From a virus (taxonomy: Duplodnaviria; Caudoviricetes), in IMG/VR virus record IMGVR_UViG_3300020411_000002: a DNA stretch of 64,000 nucleotides; one strand, 5' to 3'. Within the stretch, counting starts at the first letter, position 1, and every line of letters starts with the position of its first letter. The notes beneath the pieces are model-generated. The model was not told where the DNA came from. It was given only the letters and a program-made list of their open reading frames with translations, and ran no database searches. Made by a program: the position numbers and the translations under genes. Below are positions 8,549 through 33,500 of the stretch, one piece after another.

Positions 8549-8556
8549 TGTAAATA
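8549..8556 (+). promoter_or_regulatory. TGTAAATA phage promoter motif ahead of the modification operon
   Basis: AAAAACTGTAAATAC about 45 nt before ATG 8599. Confidence 0.55.
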
Positions 8557-8598
8557 CCCAGTAGATAAAACTGGGTATTTTTATTTCTGAGGTAAATA

Positions 8599-9396
8599 AT
8601 GACTGCAAAAACTCGTACACGCACGGCTAAGAAACCCGTTCCTAGAAAAACTAGTAAAGCTCGTAGCGTAAGTCCAGACGATATTACAACTACAACTACG
8701 GCAGAAGAGCCTGCTCGTAAACGTAAATTCAAAGCAAAGAAAGTTCGTGTTAATTCACGCACTGCTAATCGCTCTGGTGATTGGAAGTTGAAAGACTTAA
8801 AAGGTGCTGAATATAATCCACGTATGATTACAGACAGACGCCTTGATAACATGGGTGATTCATACGAGCGCTTTGGTGACTTGTCTGGTATCGTATTTAA
8901 TAGACGTAGTGGTAAGCTGGTATCTGGACACCAACGCGTAGCTAACATCGAGAAGCGCGGCTATCCTACTGCTGTTAAAACTAATCCAACTAAAGACGAT
9001 CATGGTACAGTAGAAGAAGGCGTACTAGCTGTTAAGACAGACAAGGGCGTTATCCGTATTCCAATGCGTGTTGTTGATTGGGAAGACCAAAAAGCAGAAA
9101 TGGCAGCAAACGTTGCAGCCAACGCACACGGTGGTGAGTTCGATAAACAAAAGCTAAGCAAGCTAATGGCAGACTTAGAAGTTATCGAGGGTGGATTCGA
9201 AATTGGTTTAATTGGTTTAGATGAAGTTTCTATTCGCTCACTTCCAAAGTTGCCTGATCGTCCGTCTTCTAGTTCTGAGTCAAGCTCTGGTTCTAGCGGT
9301 TCAAGTAGTCGTCCTGACGGCTTTGATGCGTATGATGAAAGTTCTTTCGATGAACAGCTACAGCACTGCTGTCCTAAATGTGGATTTGAATTCTAA
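8599..9396 (+). CDS. ParB N-terminal domain protein with C-terminal zinc ribbon
   Basis: AEYNPRMI, LVSGHQRV, ANVAANAHGGEFD, terminal CPKCGFEF; the ParB type often found beside phage MTases. Confidence 0.8.
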   Translation: MTAKTRTRTAKKPVPRKTSKARSVSPDDITTTTTAEEPARKRKFKAKKVRVNSRTANRSGDWKLKDLKGAEYNPRMITDRRLDNMGDSYERFGDLSGIVFNRRSGKLVSGHQRVANIEKRGYPTAVKTNPTKDDHGTVEEGVLAVKTDKGVIRIPMRVVDWEDQKAEMAANVAANAHGGEFDKQKLSKLMADLEVIEGGFEIGLIGLDEVSIRSLPKLPDRPSSSSESSSGSSGSSSRPDGFDAYDESSFDEQLQHCCPKCGFEF

Positions 9397-10463
9397 TGAA
9401 GTTACCAGCCAAGTTACCTACTAAAATTCCTACTATTCGGGAAATAAATAAATCTAAGAAATATTTTTTAGGTATTTCTACTTTCTCTGGTGCTGGTGGT
9501 TCTTGTACTGGTCACAAAATGGCTGGTATCGACATTCAGTATGCAAACGAATTTATACCTGCTGCAAAAGAGGTTTATGAGATTAATCATAACTCTTTTT
9601 GTGACGGCTCTGACATTCGTACTGTTAAAGGAAAAGACATTCTTAAACACTTGGGAATTAAGAAAGGTCAACTTCCTTTCATGGACGGTTCGCCTCCATG
9701 TGCATCGTTCTCTACTTCTGGTAAACGTCAAGAAGATTGGGGACAAGAAAAGAAGTACAGTGATACTACTCAACGTACTGATGACCTGTTCTTTGAATAC
9801 GGAAGACTTGTTTCTGAAATTGAACCTTGGGTTTTCTTAGCTGAAAACGTATCTGGTTTAATCAAAGGTGCTGCTCGTGGATACTTCAAAGAGATTACTA
9901 CTTCATTAAAACAGTGCGGTCGTAAAGGTTATACTGTTCAGTGTTTTAGAATTAATGGAAGTTGGTTAGGTGTTCCTCAGAATCGTGAACGTATGATATT
10001 TATCGGCGTTCGTAATGACTTGGTAAAAGCTGCTGGTGTTAAACCTATCGCTCCTATGCCACTTGATAGACAAGTAGCTGTAAAAGAAGTACTTCCACAT
10101 ATTGCTTACATCAAAACTAAAGATGGTGATATGATAAAGTACGTTCCAGCCGATAGACCGTATCCAACTATTATGGCAAGCGATTACAACACTAGTCACA
10201 CTGCACTATTTAGTTCAGGTGGATTTGTAGAAGACAAGAAAGGCACTCAGCGTAAGATGACTGTAAAAGAACTCAAACGCATTTGTACTTTCCCTGACGA
10301 TTATGAAATCACTGGTAGCATTGCTCGTAAGTGGGAGAGACTAGGTCGAAGCGTACCTCCTCTAATGATGTATCACATTACACGTTCTGTAATTGATGGT
10401 ATATTAATTCCAATTGCAGAGCATAAGAAGTTAGATTATACCAAAGGACCTGTTCATGGATAA
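9396..10463 (+). CDS. C5-cytosine methyltransferase homolog, predicted cytosine carboxymethyltransferase
   Basis: Motif I FSGAGG, IV GSPPC, VI AENV, VIII PQNRER; motif X reads GRSVPP instead of GNSV. Confidence 0.9.
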   Translation: MKLPAKLPTKIPTIREINKSKKYFLGISTFSGAGGSCTGHKMAGIDIQYANEFIPAAKEVYEINHNSFCDGSDIRTVKGKDILKHLGIKKGQLPFMDGSPPCASFSTSGKRQEDWGQEKKYSDTTQRTDDLFFEYGRLVSEIEPWVFLAENVSGLIKGAARGYFKEITTSLKQCGRKGYTVQCFRINGSWLGVPQNRERMIFIGVRNDLVKAAGVKPIAPMPLDRQVAVKEVLPHIAYIKTKDGDMIKYVPADRPYPTIMASDYNTSHTALFSSGGFVEDKKGTQRKMTVKELKRICTFPDDYEITGSIARKWERLGRSVPPLMMYHITRSVIDGILIPIAEHKKLDYTKGPVHG

Positions 10464-11229
10464 AGACAACGTAGTTCCACCTGCTAAGTGGGAGTTCAAC
10501 GAAGAAGTAGCTAAATGTTTTGACGATATGTTACAACGGTCAATTCCAAGTTATGAGACAATGCGTTCTCTTACTTGGAACATCATGCATAACTACCATG
10601 TTAAGCAACAGAGCCATGTGCCTGACTTTAACCTGAATCACTTTAGAGGAAGATTCAAGCTTGGTAGCATTCTAGACTTAGGTGCTAGTCGTGGTGAAGC
10701 ACTAAGACCTTTTATTGAATCAGGTCACTATAGCTGTGATGCAATCGAAGTGTCTGAACCTATGCTAGATGTGCTTAAAGAACTGTACGGCGAGTCTGAC
10801 AATGTTAGAATTCACAACATAGATATGCGTAATCCTGAGTTTATTCAGCGCAATACTGATGGTATGCGAAAATCTTTTACCGGCATTCTTAGCATTCTAA
10901 CTATTCAGTTTACGCCTATCGAATATCGTATGGATATTCTACAGGAAATATATGACAGCTTATCAGAGGGCGGTATGTTTATCTTTGTAGAAAAAGTTCT
11001 TGGTAGCGGTGCGCAAATTAACCGTGTAATGGTCAACACTTACCACGACTCTAAGAATGGTAATGGATATAGTCAAGAAGATGTAGAACGTAAGCGCCTA
11101 TCTTTAGAGGGTGTTCTAGTTCCACAAACAGCTAGTGCTAACGAAGAAATGTTAAAGTTAGCAGGCTTCAAACATGTTGACTGTTTTTATAGACACTTAA
11201 ACTTTGCTGGATGGGTGTGTATTAAATGA
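10456..11229 (+). CDS. cmoA: Carboxy-S-adenosylmethionine synthase (CmoA-like)
   Basis: WEFNEEVA.CFDDMLQRSIPSY, LDLGASRG, LTIQF, FVEK, RKRLSLEGV, AGF...LNF follow E. coli CmoA motifs in order. Confidence 0.85.
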   Translation: MDKDNVVPPAKWEFNEEVAKCFDDMLQRSIPSYETMRSLTWNIMHNYHVKQQSHVPDFNLNHFRGRFKLGSILDLGASRGEALRPFIESGHYSCDAIEVSEPMLDVLKELYGESDNVRIHNIDMRNPEFIQRNTDGMRKSFTGILSILTIQFTPIEYRMDILQEIYDSLSEGGMFIFVEKVLGSGAQINRVMVNTYHDSKNGNGYSQEDVERKRLSLEGVLVPQTASANEEMLKLAGFKHVDCFYRHLNFAGWVCIK

Positions 11230-12203
11230 CTAGGAAACGCAAAGCAAGTAAAAGCAAAGACACCGTTATGGTAGACGGTGTTCCTCACGAAGACATTGAG
11301 GGTATGTTAGTTCCTGCGCACTGGAATGAAAACAACAAAAAGAATTGTCGTAAAGTTCGTTCTAGCGTAAAGAAAATGGCAAGCGCACCACCCGACTTAC
11401 GCCATGCTCTTATGGAATCACTATCTTTGTTTGAAGACGATTGCGGTGTTGCATGTTCTGGTGGACTAGATAGTCAAGCAATACTTTGGTCGCTCATTGA
11501 CTTAGGTAAAAAGCCCACTGTATTTAGTGTGTGCTTCGAACATCAGATTAGCTCTGACTTCTTATCTGCTAAACAAACTGCTGAATATTTTGGTCTAGAG
11601 TTTGTTCCAGTGTTCATACCTTATGACGCCGACAAGTACTACAAGTTCCTAAAGTATATAATTCATAAGCAAGGAATTACCAGTAAGCCTAGTATAGAAT
11701 GTTTGTATCCAATGATGCTTCTAATCAAAGAAGCAGAAAAGCGTTGCAGCTATTTAGCTTTTGGGCATGGTGGGGATATCTACTACAATCTAGCGCGTAA
11801 AGCAGAAATGTTTGGTAAAGATATTTTGTACGAATCTAGACTAGCTCAGTTTAGAGGTGGTGGAATTACTTACGGCCCTAAAGGTCAAGAAACTATTCTG
11901 ACTAGATATGCGTTGAAGAAAGGCATTTTTGCAATGTTCCCTTATCTGCTAGCTAACGTGTATGCTCAGTTCCAGACGATGACTACTTGGGAAGAAACCA
12001 ACAAACCTCAAAAGCGAATCGTCAGAGAAACATGGCCTCAACACTTAAAGCCATGTAAAGTTAAGAACCACTCAAACATGCAGTTAGGTGATGGGGACAT
12101 ATCTGGAAATCTCGGTAACTTGATTCTAGATAGTGAGTATAATGTAGGCAATTGGAAAAGCCAAGTTGGGGTCTACAATCACATTGCAAAACAAAAAGTG
12201 TAA
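11226..12203 (+). CDS. Asparagine synthetase-like ATP-dependent amide ligase lacking a glutaminase domain
   Basis: PP-loop ACSGGLDS; FGHGGDIYY (cf. SGEGADELFGGY); MFPYL; 325 aa with no Ntn Cys1. Confidence 0.75.
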   Translation: MTRKRKASKSKDTVMVDGVPHEDIEGMLVPAHWNENNKKNCRKVRSSVKKMASAPPDLRHALMESLSLFEDDCGVACSGGLDSQAILWSLIDLGKKPTVFSVCFEHQISSDFLSAKQTAEYFGLEFVPVFIPYDADKYYKFLKYIIHKQGITSKPSIECLYPMMLLIKEAEKRCSYLAFGHGGDIYYNLARKAEMFGKDILYESRLAQFRGGGITYGPKGQETILTRYALKKGIFAMFPYLLANVYAQFQTMTTWEETNKPQKRIVRETWPQHLKPCKVKNHSNMQLGDGDISGNLGNLILDSEYNVGNWKSQVGVYNHIAKQKV

Positions 12204-12206
12204 ATA
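12199..12206 (+). promoter_or_regulatory. TGTAAATA phage promoter motif
   Basis: AAAAAGTGTAAATAG overlapping the stop codon of the preceding gene. Confidence 0.55.
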
Positions 12207-12319
12207 GTAGTTCTGTAAATATTAATTTTATAGAGCAAGCGAGTTAGACAAAGTACCTGCTCGTTTTTAATATCATATCCCAAGAGAAGGGTTTTCTCTA
12301 ACCAACTAAGGAGATCATC

Positions 12320-12352
12320 ATGTTGATGAACAGTGGCGGCGCATTCCAATAA
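12320..12352 (+). CDS. Micro-ORF, peptide MLMNSGGAFQ (copy 1)
   Basis: AAGGAG RBS, 6-nt spacer, ATG, 10 codons, TAA. Confidence 0.6.
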   Translation: MLMNSGGAFQ

Positions 12353-12416
12353 GCGCGTAATCATTCGGGCCCTCGCTTAAAAGAGGTTTTTAACTTTCTT
12401 AACTAAGGAGATCATC

Positions 12417-12449
12417 ATGTTGATGAACAGTGGCGGCGCATTCCAATAA
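12417..12449 (+). CDS. Micro-ORF, peptide MLMNSGGAFQ (copy 2)
   Basis: Identical to copy 1, including the RBS. Confidence 0.6.
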   Translation: MLMNSGGAFQ

Positions 12450-12487
12450 GCGCGTAATCATTTGCACTATACGTAGTGTACTTTAAT

Positions 12488-12513
12488 AAAGGGGACTTCG
12501 TGTCCCCTTTTTT
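12488..12513 (+). terminator. Rho-independent terminator
   Basis: AAA-GGGGAC-TTCGT-GTCCCC-T6. Confidence 0.85.
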
Positions 12514-15704: not shown

Positions 15705-16967
15705 ATGGCTCGTGGATTTGATAATATTAATCCAAACGCAAACAGTAGAGGAGACAAGCTTAAACCTGAAGAAATTTGGGACTTATTTAAGTTTACTGAC
15801 CAAAGTGGTTATGTCTCTGTTCGCTTTTTGCCAACCGATATCTTACCAGTTAAAACACACTGGATTAAAATCTTAGCAGGCAAAGATAAGAAAGAAATCA
15901 AGATTCCAAAAATTTGTATCAGCTTTGATCCAGATAACGAAGCAGTTGCATTAGATGGTACTGACTGTCCTTATTGCAATCTATCACAAGGTCAAGACGG
16001 TGCGTGTCAAACTTCTACTGCTTATTATGCAAACGTTATAGTGCGTGACTTGCAAGAAGATATGCCGCGTAAGCTGCCGCCACACACTAAGAGTGAAAAA
16101 GAAACTGGATACAAAGATATCAAGTCTCGCTCTTGGACTCCTGTTCGAGTTGTACGTTTACCAGCAGGTCTTGCGGGTAAGATTCAAGAAATGCGTGAGC
16201 GTAACAAAGACAAGAAAGGCAACATGTATCCTGTATCTCATGAAGAGTACGGAATTGACATTGCTATCAAGTTTGATGACAGTAAATCAGGTACGGACAA
16301 GTATCAAATCGATAAAGAAGAGCGCTCTCCTTTAGACGACGAAGAGTTAGACTATCTAACTTATGATTTAAGCGTTGAGTGTATTGATATGCTTGGTCGT
16401 GAAAGTCAGGAACAGGCTGACACCGAATTTAAACGTCTTGATATTGTCGGTGAAGATGAAATCGAAGATGATGAAGACGATGAAGAAGATGATTTACCTC
16501 GTCGTAGTAAGAAAGGCAGTAAAGGTCGTCGCCGTGCATCAGTAGATGACGAAGATGAAGAAGATGAAGAAGATGATGAAGAAGATGATCTTCCACGTAG
16601 TCGTAGAGGTAAAAAGTCTTCTAGCCGTCGCTCTCGCCGCAGTTCAATTGATGAAGACGATGACGAAGATGAAGACGAAGACGAAGACGAAGAAGAGTCT
16701 CGTAGCTCTCGCCGTAGTAAACGTTCTTCTTCACGATCTAGCCGTCGCAGCCGTCGCAGTGAGCCAGAAGATGACGAAGATGAAGACGAAGATGATGAAC
16801 CTCGTTCTAGACGTAGTAAACGTTCTTCGACCAAGACTTCTAGCAGTAGAAGACGACGCGCACCTGTAGACGAAGAAGAAGATGAAGATGATGAACCTCG
16901 TTCTCGCCGTTCTCGTACATCTTCTAAGACTCGTTCAAGCTCTCGTTCTCGTTCTCGTAGACGATAA
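15705..16967 (+). CDS. T4 gp32-like single-stranded DNA-binding protein with long D/E and R/S tail
   Basis: VRFLP, HWIK, CPYC, YYANVIVR motifs; directly upstream of RecA. Confidence 0.7.
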   Translation: MARGFDNINPNANSRGDKLKPEEIWDLFKFTDQSGYVSVRFLPTDILPVKTHWIKILAGKDKKEIKIPKICISFDPDNEAVALDGTDCPYCNLSQGQDGACQTSTAYYANVIVRDLQEDMPRKLPPHTKSEKETGYKDIKSRSWTPVRVVRLPAGLAGKIQEMRERNKDKKGNMYPVSHEEYGIDIAIKFDDSKSGTDKYQIDKEERSPLDDEELDYLTYDLSVECIDMLGRESQEQADTEFKRLDIVGEDEIEDDEDDEEDDLPRRSKKGSKGRRRASVDDEDEEDEEDDEEDDLPRSRRGKKSSSRRSRRSSIDEDDDEDEDEDEDEEESRSSRRSKRSSSRSSRRSRRSEPEDDEDEDEDDEPRSRRSKRSSTKTSSSRRRRAPVDEEEDEDDEPRSRRSRTSSKTRSSSRSRSRRR

Positions 16968-19843
16968 TGCCAGCACGAACTACAAAGGCGGCTGAGACTA
17001 CAACTCGCCGTCGCCGTCGTTCTACTAGCGTAGCAGCGACCGAGACAACAGGTGTGAGCAAGCCTAAATCTGCTCGTAGTACCAAGCAGGAAGTAGTAGA
17101 AAACAATAAAGAGTTTTTTGATATCGGTCAAATGCTTGATGAACTTCAAGATGAAACTGATAAGAAATACGGACTTGTAAGCTCAGTACTTGAACGCTCT
17201 AGTGACCGAATGAGTACAGGTATTTTATCTTTGGACTTGTTGCTATATGGTGGTATTCAGCCAGGCGGTTGGTATACTATTTACGGTCCTGAGCAAAGTG
17301 CAAAGTCTACTCTTGCTATGACTATTCTTGCACAAGCGTTACATGCACGAATGACTAAAGGTTCTAAGTTTGCTTGTGGTATCTTTGACTACGAAGGTTC
17401 TGTAGATGAAGAATACACTGGTAACATTATCAAGTCATTGGGCATTAAAGGTAATGCAGCGCAAATCTTTGGTGTACGTGATGATGACGGTGGTTGGGAA
17501 ATTCCTCCTCTTGCTCGTTATTACTCACACGATGTTGGTGATGACTTCTTTAAAGCTCTAGCCAAAATTCGCCGTGGACTTCCAGACAAACAAACGATTA
17601 ACGGCGAGCCGTGTTATCTATTTGAACACACGAAAGCTAACAAGTCTAAGTTTGCTGGAATGTACGATACCAAGTACTTGTCTCGTAACAACAAGATTAA
17701 AGTACCTGCACCAGACGGCTTCATGCAAGGTTTATACTTGTGTGACTCTTATCCAGCTATGTTACCAGATGGTCTTGATGACGATGACCGTAACAGTGGT
17801 ATGGCAGAGCAAGCTCGTATGTTCAGTGAGGGTATCAAAAAAGTTAAAGGCGGTATGCGTAAGAAAGCAATGACTGTAATTGGTATTAACCAGTTGCGTC
17901 TACGTCCAGCGACTATGTTTGGTAATCCTGAATACGAACCGTGTGGTGAAGCGTTGAAGTTTTTCTGCTTCCATCCTACAACAAACCTCTTTACTAAAGA
18001 TGGTCTTGTAACAGGACAGGAGTTTTACGATTCTGGAAGCATGTCTAAGATTCTAGGATCTAAAGGACTTGAGAAACCTACTATCTTTGATAGTACGGGC
18101 TACAGTCAGATTAGTTGTCTAACTACTGAACTTGGTAACTTTATCAAAGCTAAACCTGGACATAGAACACTCTCTATTCAAAATAGAGGCTGTATGCCTG
18201 AATGGACAAAGTTGTCCAGCTTTACAGGCACTGTAGATCGTTATGTTCCTGTTAAAGTAGGTAGTGATATTTGGTCAGATACTGATGCACTATTAGATTT
18301 TGAATCTTTTTCAAAGTATGATAATGATGTTTGTATATCCAGTGTTCCTGAATCAATGTCACCTAAGTTAGCGTATGTTCTAGGCTCTTTATGCGGCGAT
18401 GGTCATGTTCCAGGTACTGGTGTTATTCATTTTGTTACTCAAGACGAAGATACAATGGACTTCTTCTTAGAATGTTTCGAGGAATCGTTTTCATTATCAG
18501 GTCTTGAGTACAGACAGGTAGATAATAAGTTTGAATTCAGCTTATCTAGTCGTAGGATTTCTAACTTCTTAGGTTACTTAGGTTCTACAGGTACTTCCCG
18601 AACTAAGTCTGTTCCTTGGGCAGTCAGAACCTCTACTAAGAAGTCATGTTTGATGTTCTTACGAGGCTTGTTTGACTCAGACGGTAATGTAGGCCCTAAA
18701 GGTATAGGTCTTTCAACAACATCTAAATTGCTTTCCGAGCAAGTACACTTAATGTTGTTGAACTTGGGATGTATTGCTAGACTGAAACGTAAAGACCATG
18801 ATTACCATGAGCATAAAGAACTGAATGCGGTTTATAACATAAGCTGTAGTGGTTCAAATGCTGTACGTTTGTATGAATCCGTAGGTTTAACTTCCGCTCG
18901 AAAAGCAGAAGCCTTTGAATCTAAAAGTACTGGCGATCATACTCATAATGAAATGTATTCTCTTGATCTAATACCTTTTGATGTTTTACCTACTGGTAGA
19001 CAGAAGTTTCAAAAGCTTGAGGGTCTTTTGGCGGAATGCAAAGGAAGAGGAGCTTATTATCGCATTAGCCGCTTTACAGAGGATTGGTTTGATGAAGCAT
19101 TTGGTTTTGTTGAGACTTTACGTACCGAGCATGAACGTGAAAAGTATCAAAACTTTCTTATTACACTAAGTAAGTTTATAGACTACACTAGCGAAAATTC
19201 TTTGTTCTGGACAAAAGTTGTTTCTGTAGACCATAACCTAGAGCGTTCGATGACCTATGATGCTAACATGCCTAAAACACATTCAATTGTGACTAACGGT
19301 ATTGTTTCTCATAACTCCGATGTTCGAATCAAGTCTACTCCACGCAGCACAGGTCCTAGCGGTTTCGTTGTTAATAAAGGAATCGTTGAAGAGCCTAGCG
19401 TTACTGGAAGAGGAAAAGACACTTACCGCTTCTTGCGTTTAAAGACTACTAAGAACAAACTTGGTGGTATGCCACAGCAAGAATGTTGGGCACGTATCTG
19501 GATATCTGATGGTACTGGTACTGCTCGGGGTCTTGACCCAGCGTTTGATACGTTTGAGTATCTTTCACTTCTTGGAATGGTTAGCGGAAACAAAAACAAT
19601 TACAAGTTTAGTGAAGATTGCCCACTTCACGGTGCTAAGAAAATCGATTGGATTACATTTAAGAAACTAGTTCTTTGTTCTCCAAAAGAAGTCAAAGCAA
19701 TTTGTGAAGAGCAAGGTATTAAACCTGTTAAGATTCGCGATTGGTGTCAAAAGCGTTGCGCTAACGGAAGTCATCCTAAGTTGTTCAAAGAAATCTTGGT
19801 GTCTGCTGCTACAGGTGGTAAGAAGTCTGACGATGATGAATAA
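16967..19843 (+). CDS. recA: RecA/UvsX recombinase interrupted by an intein
   Basis: STGILSLDLLLYGG, YGPEQSAKST Walker A, DSYPAM, INQLR, GEALKFF|SDVR, KTTKNK. Confidence 0.9.
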   Translation: MPARTTKAAETTTRRRRRSTSVAATETTGVSKPKSARSTKQEVVENNKEFFDIGQMLDELQDETDKKYGLVSSVLERSSDRMSTGILSLDLLLYGGIQPGGWYTIYGPEQSAKSTLAMTILAQALHARMTKGSKFACGIFDYEGSVDEEYTGNIIKSLGIKGNAAQIFGVRDDDGGWEIPPLARYYSHDVGDDFFKALAKIRRGLPDKQTINGEPCYLFEHTKANKSKFAGMYDTKYLSRNNKIKVPAPDGFMQGLYLCDSYPAMLPDGLDDDDRNSGMAEQARMFSEGIKKVKGGMRKKAMTVIGINQLRLRPATMFGNPEYEPCGEALKFFCFHPTTNLFTKDGLVTGQEFYDSGSMSKILGSKGLEKPTIFDSTGYSQISCLTTELGNFIKAKPGHRTLSIQNRGCMPEWTKLSSFTGTVDRYVPVKVGSDIWSDTDALLDFESFSKYDNDVCISSVPESMSPKLAYVLGSLCGDGHVPGTGVIHFVTQDEDTMDFFLECFEESFSLSGLEYRQVDNKFEFSLSSRRISNFLGYLGSTGTSRTKSVPWAVRTSTKKSCLMFLRGLFDSDGNVGPKGIGLSTTSKLLSEQVHLMLLNLGCIARLKRKDHDYHEHKELNAVYNISCSGSNAVRLYESVGLTSARKAEAFESKSTGDHTHNEMYSLDLIPFDVLPTGRQKFQKLEGLLAECKGRGAYYRISRFTEDWFDEAFGFVETLRTEHEREKYQNFLITLSKFIDYTSENSLFWTKVVSVDHNLERSMTYDANMPKTHSIVTNGIVSHNSDVRIKSTPRSTGPSGFVVNKGIVEEPSVTGRGKDTYRFLRLKTTKNKLGGMPQQECWARIWISDGTGTARGLDPAFDTFEYLSLLGMVSGNKNNYKFSEDCPLHGAKKIDWITFKKLVLCSPKEVKAICEEQGIKPVKIRDWCQKRCANGSHPKLFKEILVSAATGGKKSDDDE
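17966..19315 (+). mobile_element. 450-aa LAGLIDADG homing-endonuclease intein in RecA
   Basis: Starts CFHP after ALKFF; ends NGIVSHN before Ser; LAGLIDADG blocks LGSLCGDG and LRGLFDSDG. Confidence 0.92.
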
Positions 19844-30193: not shown

Positions 30194-30541
30194 ATGGCAG
30201 GTCTATTAAACTCAACTATCAAGTCTACTGTTCTAGAAGATTTGATCGCGGTGGCAAAAGAAAACTCTTTATATCTGAAAATGGCAGTTTCAAATTTAAG
30301 AGCAGTTGCCAAACAAGACCCAGCTAAAGCCCAGTCTTTAGATGCAGATGTAATGAATCTAAAAGAAACCTTTGATACCCAATTGGATTCAATGTTTCAA
30401 ACTAAAGCGTATGTGTTGGTACTTAACAACGTTACAGTAGATCACTACGTAGAAAAATCAGAGTTTTTTGACAAGCAGGTGGAGATATTTAAGGGTCACA
30501 TTCAAAACCTTTACAATCGCATCATGCAAGAACTAGCTTAA
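30194..30541 (+). CDS. Hypothetical protein (start moved from 30167)
   Basis: GGAG RBS before ATG 30194. Confidence 0.7.
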   Translation: MAGLLNSTIKSTVLEDLIAVAKENSLYLKMAVSNLRAVAKQDPAKAQSLDADVMNLKETFDTQLDSMFQTKAYVLVLNNVTVDHYVEKSEFFDKQVEIFKGHIQNLYNRIMQELA

Positions 30542-30555
30542 TCAGGGGAATACAA

Positions 30556-33500
30556 ATGGATACAATTAAAAAATTACGCCGCACTTTAACAGGCACTACA
30601 GTTACAGAGTGGGCAGTTTTAGCAAGTGGTAACATTGACATTTACAGCACTATCGACCAATACACTACGCAAGGGAACAGACACCCTGTTCTTCTTAGGT
30701 CTGTAAAGCAAGAAGTTCAAAGCGGTACAGTTAACTTAGATGACGCAAACCGTAATGTTCTTGCGTTTAACATTTACTTAGACCCGAACTTTGTAACGTT
30801 TCTGAACGATCTAGGTGAAGAGTTCTTTAAGAGCTTTGTACTAAAGATGGAAGATTCTTTGAAGGCATTGCCTGCAATGTTTGCAAAGTTTTGTACTTGT
30901 AAGATTTATACTACAGTGTACGAAGAAGACCAACCTATCGATACTGATAAAGCATTTACTATTGAATTCGATGTAGGTGAAGACGGCGACTTTGATAAAC
31001 TAACTTCAATCTTTGGTGACTTCAATCTGTTGCGCTCTACGCGTATGCAAGATTCAGATGTTCAGCCTTACTCGACCACGTTTATGTCTTACTTCTTGGT
31101 GCTTTTCGAAAAAGAGTCTTGGGTGACTTTAGCCATGAAGAAAAACATTGAAGACAACTTTTTATCTAAGCGCTTCTGGTCTGCTGTTGTAGAAATGTAT
31201 TCTGGCGATTTGCGAGTACACGACTACAGAGAAGGTTTTACTATTAAAGACTACATGGGCAGAATCCTATCTAATGCTTTAACTATGATTGGTACTTTCT
31301 TCTATGTTAGTGCATCAGGTATACGTGAAGGTCTTAGACTGGAAGACTTAGAAAAGTTGCCGTCTATAAAGAGCGAATTCAAAGATATAAACGAAGAATC
31401 ATACGCGCCCACTGATGTGTTTAAAGAGCGCCATGCGTTTTGTCTAGAACTAATTGCGTACTTCCGCAAACATCTTAATGACCAAGAATGGTCTTTATTG
31501 AAATGTATATTTACTACACCGAATCTTGCCGAGTCTTTCATACAGAATGCGCGTGAGTTAGAGTTTATTGAAGCGCTTGAGTACGGCAGTATAGAGTACA
31601 ACGACCTGTACAAAGGTTTTCTTTCTTCTCTTGGGGATGACGCTGAGCCATTTGATAAAGCCTTTGATAAGACTCAAGCTCCCGAAACCGAACAACGCAC
31701 TCTTACACTTGAAGACGAAGACGAGATTCTTGTTCCGGTGAAAGAAGACTTAGAAGCGGCAGCGCTTGTTACAAAGCTGGAAGAGTTGAAACATCCTGAC
31801 TTGACGGATCGATTGATTGGAAAAATGACTTTTACCGAAATGCAAGAAGCTTATGAGAAGTACAAAGACTACGTTCCAAGCAAAGACCTTAAAGCTGTTT
31901 GTACTGACTTGCGAACTAAGCTTAAAGAAAATCCTCCTAAAGCAGGGTACAGCAAGTCAGTGCTAGAAACTCTAGCGCAAGATAGAATTTTAGGTCTTGC
32001 AGTGAACTACATTCCAAACTATGTTCCAAGTGAAATACTTCCAGACCTAACTAGCCCTGATGTGACTGGAATATTTAGCTCTTCTATAAAAGAGTTGTTC
32101 GAAGTAGCAGTATCTATGGGTATAACATCTTCTCTTGCACTGGATTCAAAAGCGGCGCAAATTGCTTTTATATGTGACTACGCCGAAGAGCATGAAGAGT
32201 TTGATTTAATAATTAAGCCTATGCTGTCACCTACGTATCTTACTAACAGTTATGCAAAAGTTAGATTTGACAACATATCAAGCACTTTGGTTTCTTTGTG
32301 TTCTGGTTATCTACCTATAAACCCAGACGCTGAGCGATATGATAGTATTCCACAAAGTAAAAAGCCGGGCTACTTAATAGGCTTTATAGTACAGCTTTAC
32401 TTACTGCGTATCTTGTTAAAGACTTTATTTAAAGAAGTTGAAGCTACATCAGGTCTATCCTTAGATGACTTTACGCTTAATGAACTTCATAAACTACTAT
32501 TTTGTATAGTAACTACGTTCAAAATATACAAAGGCGACCCTGATGACTTAGTGTGGACTTACGGTACTATGCTAGACAAGACACTTGAACATTTTTCAGT
32601 AGACGTGCCTTCGCAAATTGATGATGCTGCATTGCGATCTTTTTTGAAAGAGTCAGAATACTACTCGATTGAAGACATGGAGCAGGTGTTTGCTGATGAA
32701 GTATTTGAGCCTGATCTTGATTGTGTTATATATTACTTTAAGAGCAGACCTGATTGTGATTTTCACGGCTACTTGGATAAAGTTATTCCTAAGTGGACTG
32801 ACGAGAACCCACCGACTGACGAACAATATGCAGAGTTAGGCGGAATTACGGTGGTTCTTGATAATGAAGAGGCGTTTGAGGATTTAGATATGAACTTAGA
32901 GCGTGAAAGACTAATCACCTCTATATGCTATACGTTTGATTATATTCCTATTGCTGCTGTTAAGCATTTAGGGTTCACCCCTTTAAGAGAACTTTATCAC
33001 TATTCTACATCGGGGATGCGTACTTTAGATTTGGATTACATTCTAGTTTCAAGGCTTGAGTCTATTGGATATGAAAAAAATTATTTAATGGAAATGTCTC
33101 AACAGGAGCTTATAGAACTGTACATTGAGTATCTTAATAGTGAGGGTTCAGAAGTTCTTCCGAAAGACTTTAATATTAAGAAAGTTCGAAAGTTCATTCG
33201 CAAAAACTCGTTCATTGAAAAAGAGATTTTAGACAGACTAGAACCTCTTCCAATCTATGCTATGTTCGATACTTTGCAGAGTATTAAAAAGCTAGCGAAT
33301 AAGATCGCGAAGAAACCTAGAACCCAAAGCAAAGTTGTAGATAAGATTTTGGATTACTACGAGAAGAATATACAATCCGTTGACTCCTCAATATGTTCTT
33401 ACTTGATGCATTTGATGGTTGTTAAAAGTCGTCAAATGTCGGTTAATATAGATCAAGCTAACTTTGATAAGTGCAATGAAGTGAGCTTTGAAGATTTACA

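Follow-up and report, generated by a model that had tools for sequence, protein, structure and literature searches.

A divergent CmoY-type ligase from a marine phage lineage as a candidate for decorating carboxymethylcytosine in DNA

Which amine does a phage enzyme attach, and to which carboxylate, when it carries the adenylating half of asparagine synthetase and no glutaminase domain with which to draw ammonia from glutamine? A gene of this kind lies at the end of a short operon in the viral DNA analyzed here (64,000 nucleotides in all, hereafter the window). A first-pass annotation of the same DNA had expected its product to amidate carboxymethylated DNA with an external amine and had declared the amine donor unknown. 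Both halves of the question, the DNA substrate and the amine, can be approached through the conserved motifs of the ligase, its operon partners and its place in a family that has one characterized member.

That member comes from Synechococcus phage S-B43, as part of its CmoA/CmoX/CmoY system (Yang et al., Nat Commun 2025 (17:281), December 2025, PMC12783734). The S-B43 CmoA makes carboxy-SAM; SpCmoX, a C5-methyltransferase homologue with an SPPC motif and with Arg350 replacing the usual Asn, writes 5-carboxymethylcytosine (5cxmC) at GC sites; and SpCmoY, which is homologous to asparagine synthetase but lacks the amidase domain, couples glycine to 5cxmC in DNA in an ATP-dependent reaction (PMC12783734). 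The product, 5-glycylcarboxymethylcytosine, was demonstrated in native phage DNA as well as in E. coli and in vitro, and ParBc proteins were reported in many CmoX contigs (PMC12783734). Glycine-specific CmoY enzymes make up the largest SSN cluster, and the residues of their glycine-carboxylate pocket are given in Supplementary Fig. 8; several other clusters of ligases differ in their pocket residues and have amines yet to be named, probably other than glycine, and a second large cluster is predicted to take glutamine-derived ammonia (PMC12783734). The description of the amine donor as unknown therefore does not hold for the prototype, which takes glycine (PMC12783734); it stands only for the divergent branch to which the window ligase belongs.

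Judged by sequence, the window ligase is a distant CmoY relative and part of this published system. Like SpCmoY (UniProt A0A514ABJ0), it is an AsnB synthetase domain only, with the PP-loop and the catalytic Lys, and has a CmoA and a CmoX as encoded partners, the latter with SPPC and the equivalent of Arg350. By tblastn the two ligases share 28.6% identity over 67% of the query (E 7e-15), and both fall into one connected family of 458 clusters retrieved by an HMM scan of 1.84 billion representatives. The differences are also clear: the window ligase carries about 55 additional, conserved residues at its N-terminus, sits in a separate clade and shows rare residues where SpCmoY keeps the consensus, and the gene order CmoA-CmoY-CmoX of S-B43 contrasts with ParB-CmoX-CmoA-CmoY in the window (Table 1).

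Table 1. Position and basis of assignment of the ligase operon and of the downstream micro-ORF unit in the window.
Feature	Position	Strand	Basis
ParB-like gene (ParBc-type), first operon gene	8599-9396	+	phrog_620, E 8.7e-27
CmoX-type DNA cytosine C5-carboxymethyltransferase (predicted)	9396-10463	+	PF00145, E 3e-46
CmoX catalytic GSPPC, Cys102	9699-9701	+	aligns with SpCmoX SPPC
CmoX motif X GRSVPP, Arg318 (Asn-to-Arg switch)	10347-10349	+	equivalent to SpCmoX Arg350
CmoA-type carboxy-SAM synthase (predicted)	10456-11229	+	TIGR00740, E 1.2e-34 (score under the NCBIfam curated cut-off)
CmoY-type ATP-dependent amide ligase (predicted), AsnB synthetase domain only, 325 aa	11226-12203	+	homology, Pfam, AF2 model
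Ligase PP-loop SGGLDS, ATP pyrophosphatase motif, residues 78-83	11457-11474	+	ligase translation
Ligase G180-H181-G182-G183-D184 = AsnB G347-E348-G349-S350-D351	11763-11777	+	profile alignment, 1ct9 and 1jgt
Ligase Lys263 = AsnB Lys449 = beta-LS Lys443	12012-12014	+	profile alignment
Micro-ORF unit: two TGTAAATA motifs (12199, 12214), repeats, strong terminator (12488-12510)	12199-12513	+	
Two exact 62-nt repeats	12304-12365, 12401-12462	+	
10-codon ORFs MLMNSGGAFQ, one per repeat, each with a strong RBS (AAGGAG), ATG to TAA	12320-12352, 12417-12449	+	

The assignment to the asparagine-synthetase fold is consistent across methods. PF00733 (Asn_synthase; residues 72-184, E 1.2e-7) is the sole Pfam match of the ligase, and no GATase family was found in it by Pfam. 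An AF2 model built on 139 homologues has a mean pLDDT of 90.5, and its best Foldseek matches (E 5e-9 to 5e-7) are the C-terminal synthetase domains of human ASNS and E. coli AsnB (1ct9), along with beta-lactam synthetase (beta-LS) and carbapenam synthetase; the family profile aligns to AsnB residues 208-442 with E 1.9e-14 and to beta-LS (1jgt) with E 4.8e-12. The first-pass annotation had noted the SGGLDS PP-loop and later synthetase motifs, and the PP-loop, the GxGxD motif and the catalytic Lys are all intact: S78, G80, D82 and S83 are almost invariant among the 139 homologues, in which Lys263 is the sole invariant residue. When the GxGxD segment is compared with AsnB S346-G347-E348-G349-S350-D351, the register is offset by one, G180 pairing with G347, and His181 falls at the general-base site held by Glu348 in AsnB and Tyr348 in beta-LS.

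The missing glutaminase is borne out as well. Residues 1-57 form a basic tail, a small three-stranded beta-hairpin and a helix, which is not an Ntn glutaminase; the protein begins MTRKRK, with Thr rather than Cys at residue 2. An identity as glutamine-dependent AsnB was rejected on these grounds: no N-terminal Ntn glutaminase, no Cys2. The extension (nt 11226-11396; basic tail and hairpin EDIEGMLVPAHWNENNKK) is missing in SpCmoY and in most family members and strongly conserved in the metagenomic protein P0003. Between the window ligase and that of a sister strain (L007), 48 codon differences are synonymous and 5 non-synonymous, which points to purifying selection on a working gene and indicates that the N-terminal extension belongs to it.

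Compared with its better-known relatives, the window ligase has the C-terminal-domain fold and the adenylation motifs of E. coli AsnB and human ASNS; unlike them, it has no ammonia tunnel, its carboxyl substrate would, by analogy, be a DNA base, and the residues with which AsnB binds Asp are replaced (R324 by Glu158, D384 by Gln221 and E348 by His181 in the profile alignment). Beta-LS, carbapenam synthetase and lasso cyclases are, as the window ligase appears to be, AsnB-derived adenylating enzymes that use an amine other than ammonia. These enzymes keep the N-terminal domain and form the amide within a single substrate molecule. The analogy to truncated folds drawn in the first pass is thus loose, and no partner genes of beta-LS, carbapenam synthetase or lasso cyclase are present at the window locus.

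The operon supplies the DNA context. Its genes run ParB-CmoX-CmoA-ligase with overlapping start and stop codons, the ATG of the ligase, the last gene, overlapping the stop of the CmoA-like gene (ATGA); the ParB-like gene is preceded at short distance by a TGTAAATA motif (8549) and by a bidirectional terminator (8552-8580). The window CmoX and SpCmoX share 35% identity (E 3e-61), and their SPPC motifs and Arg residues align; the window CmoA is 28% identical to SpCmoA (E 5e-21). The operon was detected in marine metatranscriptome assemblies from three studies, where RNA-library contigs show only that it is present; their gaps and differing depths say nothing about expression level. Among the neighbor genes, neither CmoB nor a lasso B-protein nor an RRE was recognized by Pfam, PHROG or NCBIfam.

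A glutaminase-less AsnB-type ligase encoded beside CmoA and an Arg-substituted C5-methyltransferase should amidate carboxymethylcytosine with an external amine. By homology and context, CmoA would make carboxy-SAM from SAM and prephenate, and CmoX, through Cys102 and Arg318, would move the carboxymethyl group onto cytosine C5 in double-stranded phage DNA. The ligase would bind ATP at the PP-loop and adenylate the carboxylate of 5-carboxymethylcytosine, a step that Lys263 is expected to stabilize, and the external amine would attack the acyl-adenylate to give the amide, AMP and PPi. The hypermodified cytosine would most likely protect phage DNA from host nucleases. The core of the first-pass deduction, DNA amidation, is right in view of this operon context, and such amidation was demonstrated experimentally for SpCmoY (PMC12783734).

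Further evidence for a DNA substrate comes from the family at large. Four proteins among the best 150 of the 458 clusters (P0017, P0019, P0086 and P0094; all metagenomic, 608-701 aa) are fusions of an N-terminal C5 DNA methylase with a C-terminal ligase, which ties the ligase to the DNA product of the methyltransferase independently of gene order. On balance, the window ligase probably acts on 5cxmC-containing DNA as a CmoY-type amide ligase; speaking against this reading are the low identity (28%) to the only characterized member, which belongs to a different, well-supported clade, and the score of CmoA below its curated cut-off. As a separate observation, P0057 (385 aa) and P0138 (413 aa) carry, after the ligase domain, a weak match to the uracil-DNA-glycosylase superfamily (E 1.6e-4 to 6.4e-4, under the Pfam cut-off), and this part may be a base-flipping or DNA-binding module.

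In a FastTree phylogeny of 147 family members, the window ligase pairs with P0003 (52% identity, support 99). The pair lies within a clade of 10 rows (support 92) that includes Erwinia jumbo phage Y3 and Salmonella phage Sen-NF, and the SpCmoY clade (15 rows, support 96) is separate. In a proxy similarity network at score 56, the window ligase joins the largest component via Y3 (score 56.1) and SpCmoY is a singleton, which reflects the sparse sampling of the network. The nearest isolate proteins are annotated as ‘asparagine synthase’ in Erwinia jumbo phages Y3 and Yoloswag and in Salmonella phage Sen-NF and are 37% identical to the window ligase; Y3 also encodes an annotated CmoA (48% identity to that of the window) and a CmoX homologue (47%).

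Closer relatives of the operon are few. A megablast search of the phage collection with the operon gave no match, four scans of the viral contig collection (P0001, A2, P0003 and P0004) recovered no relatives, and the sole return of the metagenome scan was L007, a marine metagenome contig of 242.5 kb whose ligase has 98% amino-acid identity. The Y3 and Sen-NF loci differ from that of the window in what follows the ligase, which is directly succeeded in both by a 2OG-Fe(II) oxygenase (PF13640, E 2e-15; Y3 L003 7131-7769, Sen-NF L002 6874-7521); this suggests further oxidation of the adduct in those phages. No such oxygenase was found in the window by tblastn, and the two ORFs 3' of the window ligase are unrelated to it. 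Two peculiarities of the isolates may be recorded. In the Sen-NF record (L002, 108.5 kb), the ligase and oxygenase are present, but no homologue of CmoA or of CmoX could be detected; either part of the genome is missing from this record, or the ligase in that phage serves another carboxylated base. In Y3, the CmoX homologue (L004/L005, record 30415-32511) is a single 742-aa reading frame in which the methyltransferase halves (query residues 9-107 and 102-345) are split by an insert of about 350 residues.

What sets the window ligase apart within the family is a group of rare residues. A census of conserved motif positions over 147 rows places Pro at position 155 (found in 5 rows; family consensus Thr/Ala), His at 181 (19 rows; Leu, with Ile in SpCmoY), Asn at 188 (3 rows; Gly), Phe at 196 (3 rows; His), Gly at 290 (3 rows; Ser) and Asp at 291 (2 rows; Gly). 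All six are common to the window ligase and P0003, in which GDGD replaces GDSG; the ligases of Y3, Yoloswag and Sen-NF, by contrast, do not have the GDGD substitution and show Leu where the window ligase has His181. Going by their AsnB and beta-LS counterparts, positions 181-188 would flank the adenylate and the incoming nucleophile, and positions 155, 196, 290 and 291 are tentatively placed near the active site. The amine pocket of the window ligase may thus differ from that of SpCmoY. Conserved features persist alongside: Arg210, Gln221 and Asp289, which are family-specific and present in most homologues, are kept in the window ligase, as is Lys263, and Arg210 is conserved in 125 of the 147 rows and in SpCmoY.

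These observations bear on the amine, which a ligase without a glutaminase domain would take from the cell pool. The leading candidate is a small alpha-amino acid, glycine included, at roughly even odds. Glycine by itself, the amine of SpCmoY, is a tentative assignment and somewhat doubtful for the window ligase. The lineage of the window, L007 and P0003 has a seemingly remodeled active-site signature and may attach something other than glycine; that it makes a new non-glycine adduct of any kind is nearly, if not quite, an even prospect.

The same enzyme acting on the same DNA substrate could instead take a polyamine, ethanolamine or some other organic amine outside the alpha-amino acids, and the adduct would then be a cytosine modification not yet described. 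The rare residues that the window ligase shares with P0003 (His181, Asn188, Phe196 and Gly290-Asp291) lie in motifs around the adenylate site of AsnB and beta-LS, the added Asp in the LGDxxI loop might suit a cationic amine, and precedent exists in the published clusters with distinct pocket residues and amines yet to be named (PMC12783734). This reading is nevertheless unlikely: Arg210, a candidate carboxylate binder, is retained, the pocket placement of the rare positions comes from homology, and Pfam recognized no amine-biosynthesis or glutaminase gene among some 40 ORFs of the window.

Use of free ammonia, which would yield 5-carbamoylmethylcytosine, is rather improbable. AsnB-type synthetase domains take NH3 directly, and His181 occupies the AsnB Glu348 general-base position, which adjoins the point where ammonia arrives; the second large published cluster is also predicted to use ammonia, derived from glutamine (PMC12783734). 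The ammonia-type relatives, however, keep a glutaminase domain, and the only long homologue of this kind recovered is a remote one (E 1.7e-6). No separate glutaminase gene turned up in the window, and the sole characterized member without the domain takes glycine.

A third possibility, that the decapeptide MLMNSGGAFQ supplies the amine from its N-terminus, which would produce peptide-decorated cytosines in the phage DNA, arises from the cassette that begins right at the stop codon of the ligase, no terminator intervening. In L007 both micro-ORF copies are present and differ from those of the window by AAC AGT to AAT TCT, synonymous in each, and the flanks diverge; the decapeptide thus seems to be selected. 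RNA-library contigs of 127 nt over the repeats reach a depth of 30-106, against 2.7-5 for operon contigs from the same marine run (X4), a contrast that amounts to a weak hint because contigs cannot rank expression. The RNA fold of the micro-ORF unit is no more stable than that of shuffled sequences (z = -1.6). The micro-ORF pair is likely to encode a real, highly expressed peptide or leader. As a ligase substrate, however, the decapeptide is very improbable. Position is its only link to the ligase, the unit has promoter-like motifs and a terminator of its own, and it could equally well be a leader peptide or some small protein with no connection to the ligase. The decapeptide was not found near the ligases of Y3, Sen-NF and S-B43, and its back-translated sequence was not found in the viral contig collection.

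The composition of the decapeptide points the same way. Asp, Glu and Lys are all missing from it, which rules it out as a lasso-type substrate; only its N-terminal amine could react, and this would start formylated. An identity of the ligase as a lasso-peptide cyclase was rejected, given the lack of an acidic residue in the adjacent peptide and of a recognizable B-protein or RRE among the neighbors. That the ligase leaves DNA alone and amidates a peptide, a tRNA base or some small metabolite, in the manner of beta-LS or lasso cyclases, is highly improbable, for while the fold family contains such enzymes (Foldseek) and the product of classical CmoA feeds tRNA modification, the operon includes a DNA C5-methyltransferase with the Cx-SAM Arg switch, CmoX-ligase fusion proteins exist, and the neighborhood offers neither CmoB nor lasso partners nor a peptide with the Asp or Glu that a lasso ring requires.

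The surrounding DNA is that of a giant marine phage not in culture. The window consists of a long series of genes on one strand, most of them with no match in Pfam or PHROG. Products that were recognized include a sigma factor, SSB, a UvsX-like recombinase and topoisomerase II subunits. Relatives of the window among isolated phages are remote and detectable at the protein level only. The octamer TGTAAATA occurs at 14 sites against 4.8 expected, a count reached in 0 of 100 shuffles; the sites, which include 8549, 12199, 12214, 19852, 47602, 54489 and 60199, often lie just upstream of + strand gene blocks, and the octamer is a candidate phage promoter element. The UvsX-like ORF (16967-19843, 958 aa) matches a recombinase at residues 40-334 and an endonuclease-like domain at residues 465-634 and may contain an intein or be fused to a homing endonuclease.

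The preferred reading, a CmoY-type ligase acting on 5cxmC in DNA, places the window gene in a recently described phage route in which a carboxyl handle is put on cytosine and then decorated, and for which one ligase, specific for glycine, has been characterized. The pathway and the amine of its prototype were already known, and the window ligase leaves the known mechanism unchanged; what is new is a divergent member, which adds a well-defined branch found in marine and enterobacterial jumbo phages. Its rare motif residues, together with the natural CmoX-ligase fusions, make this branch a reasonable candidate when new cytosine adducts are sought.
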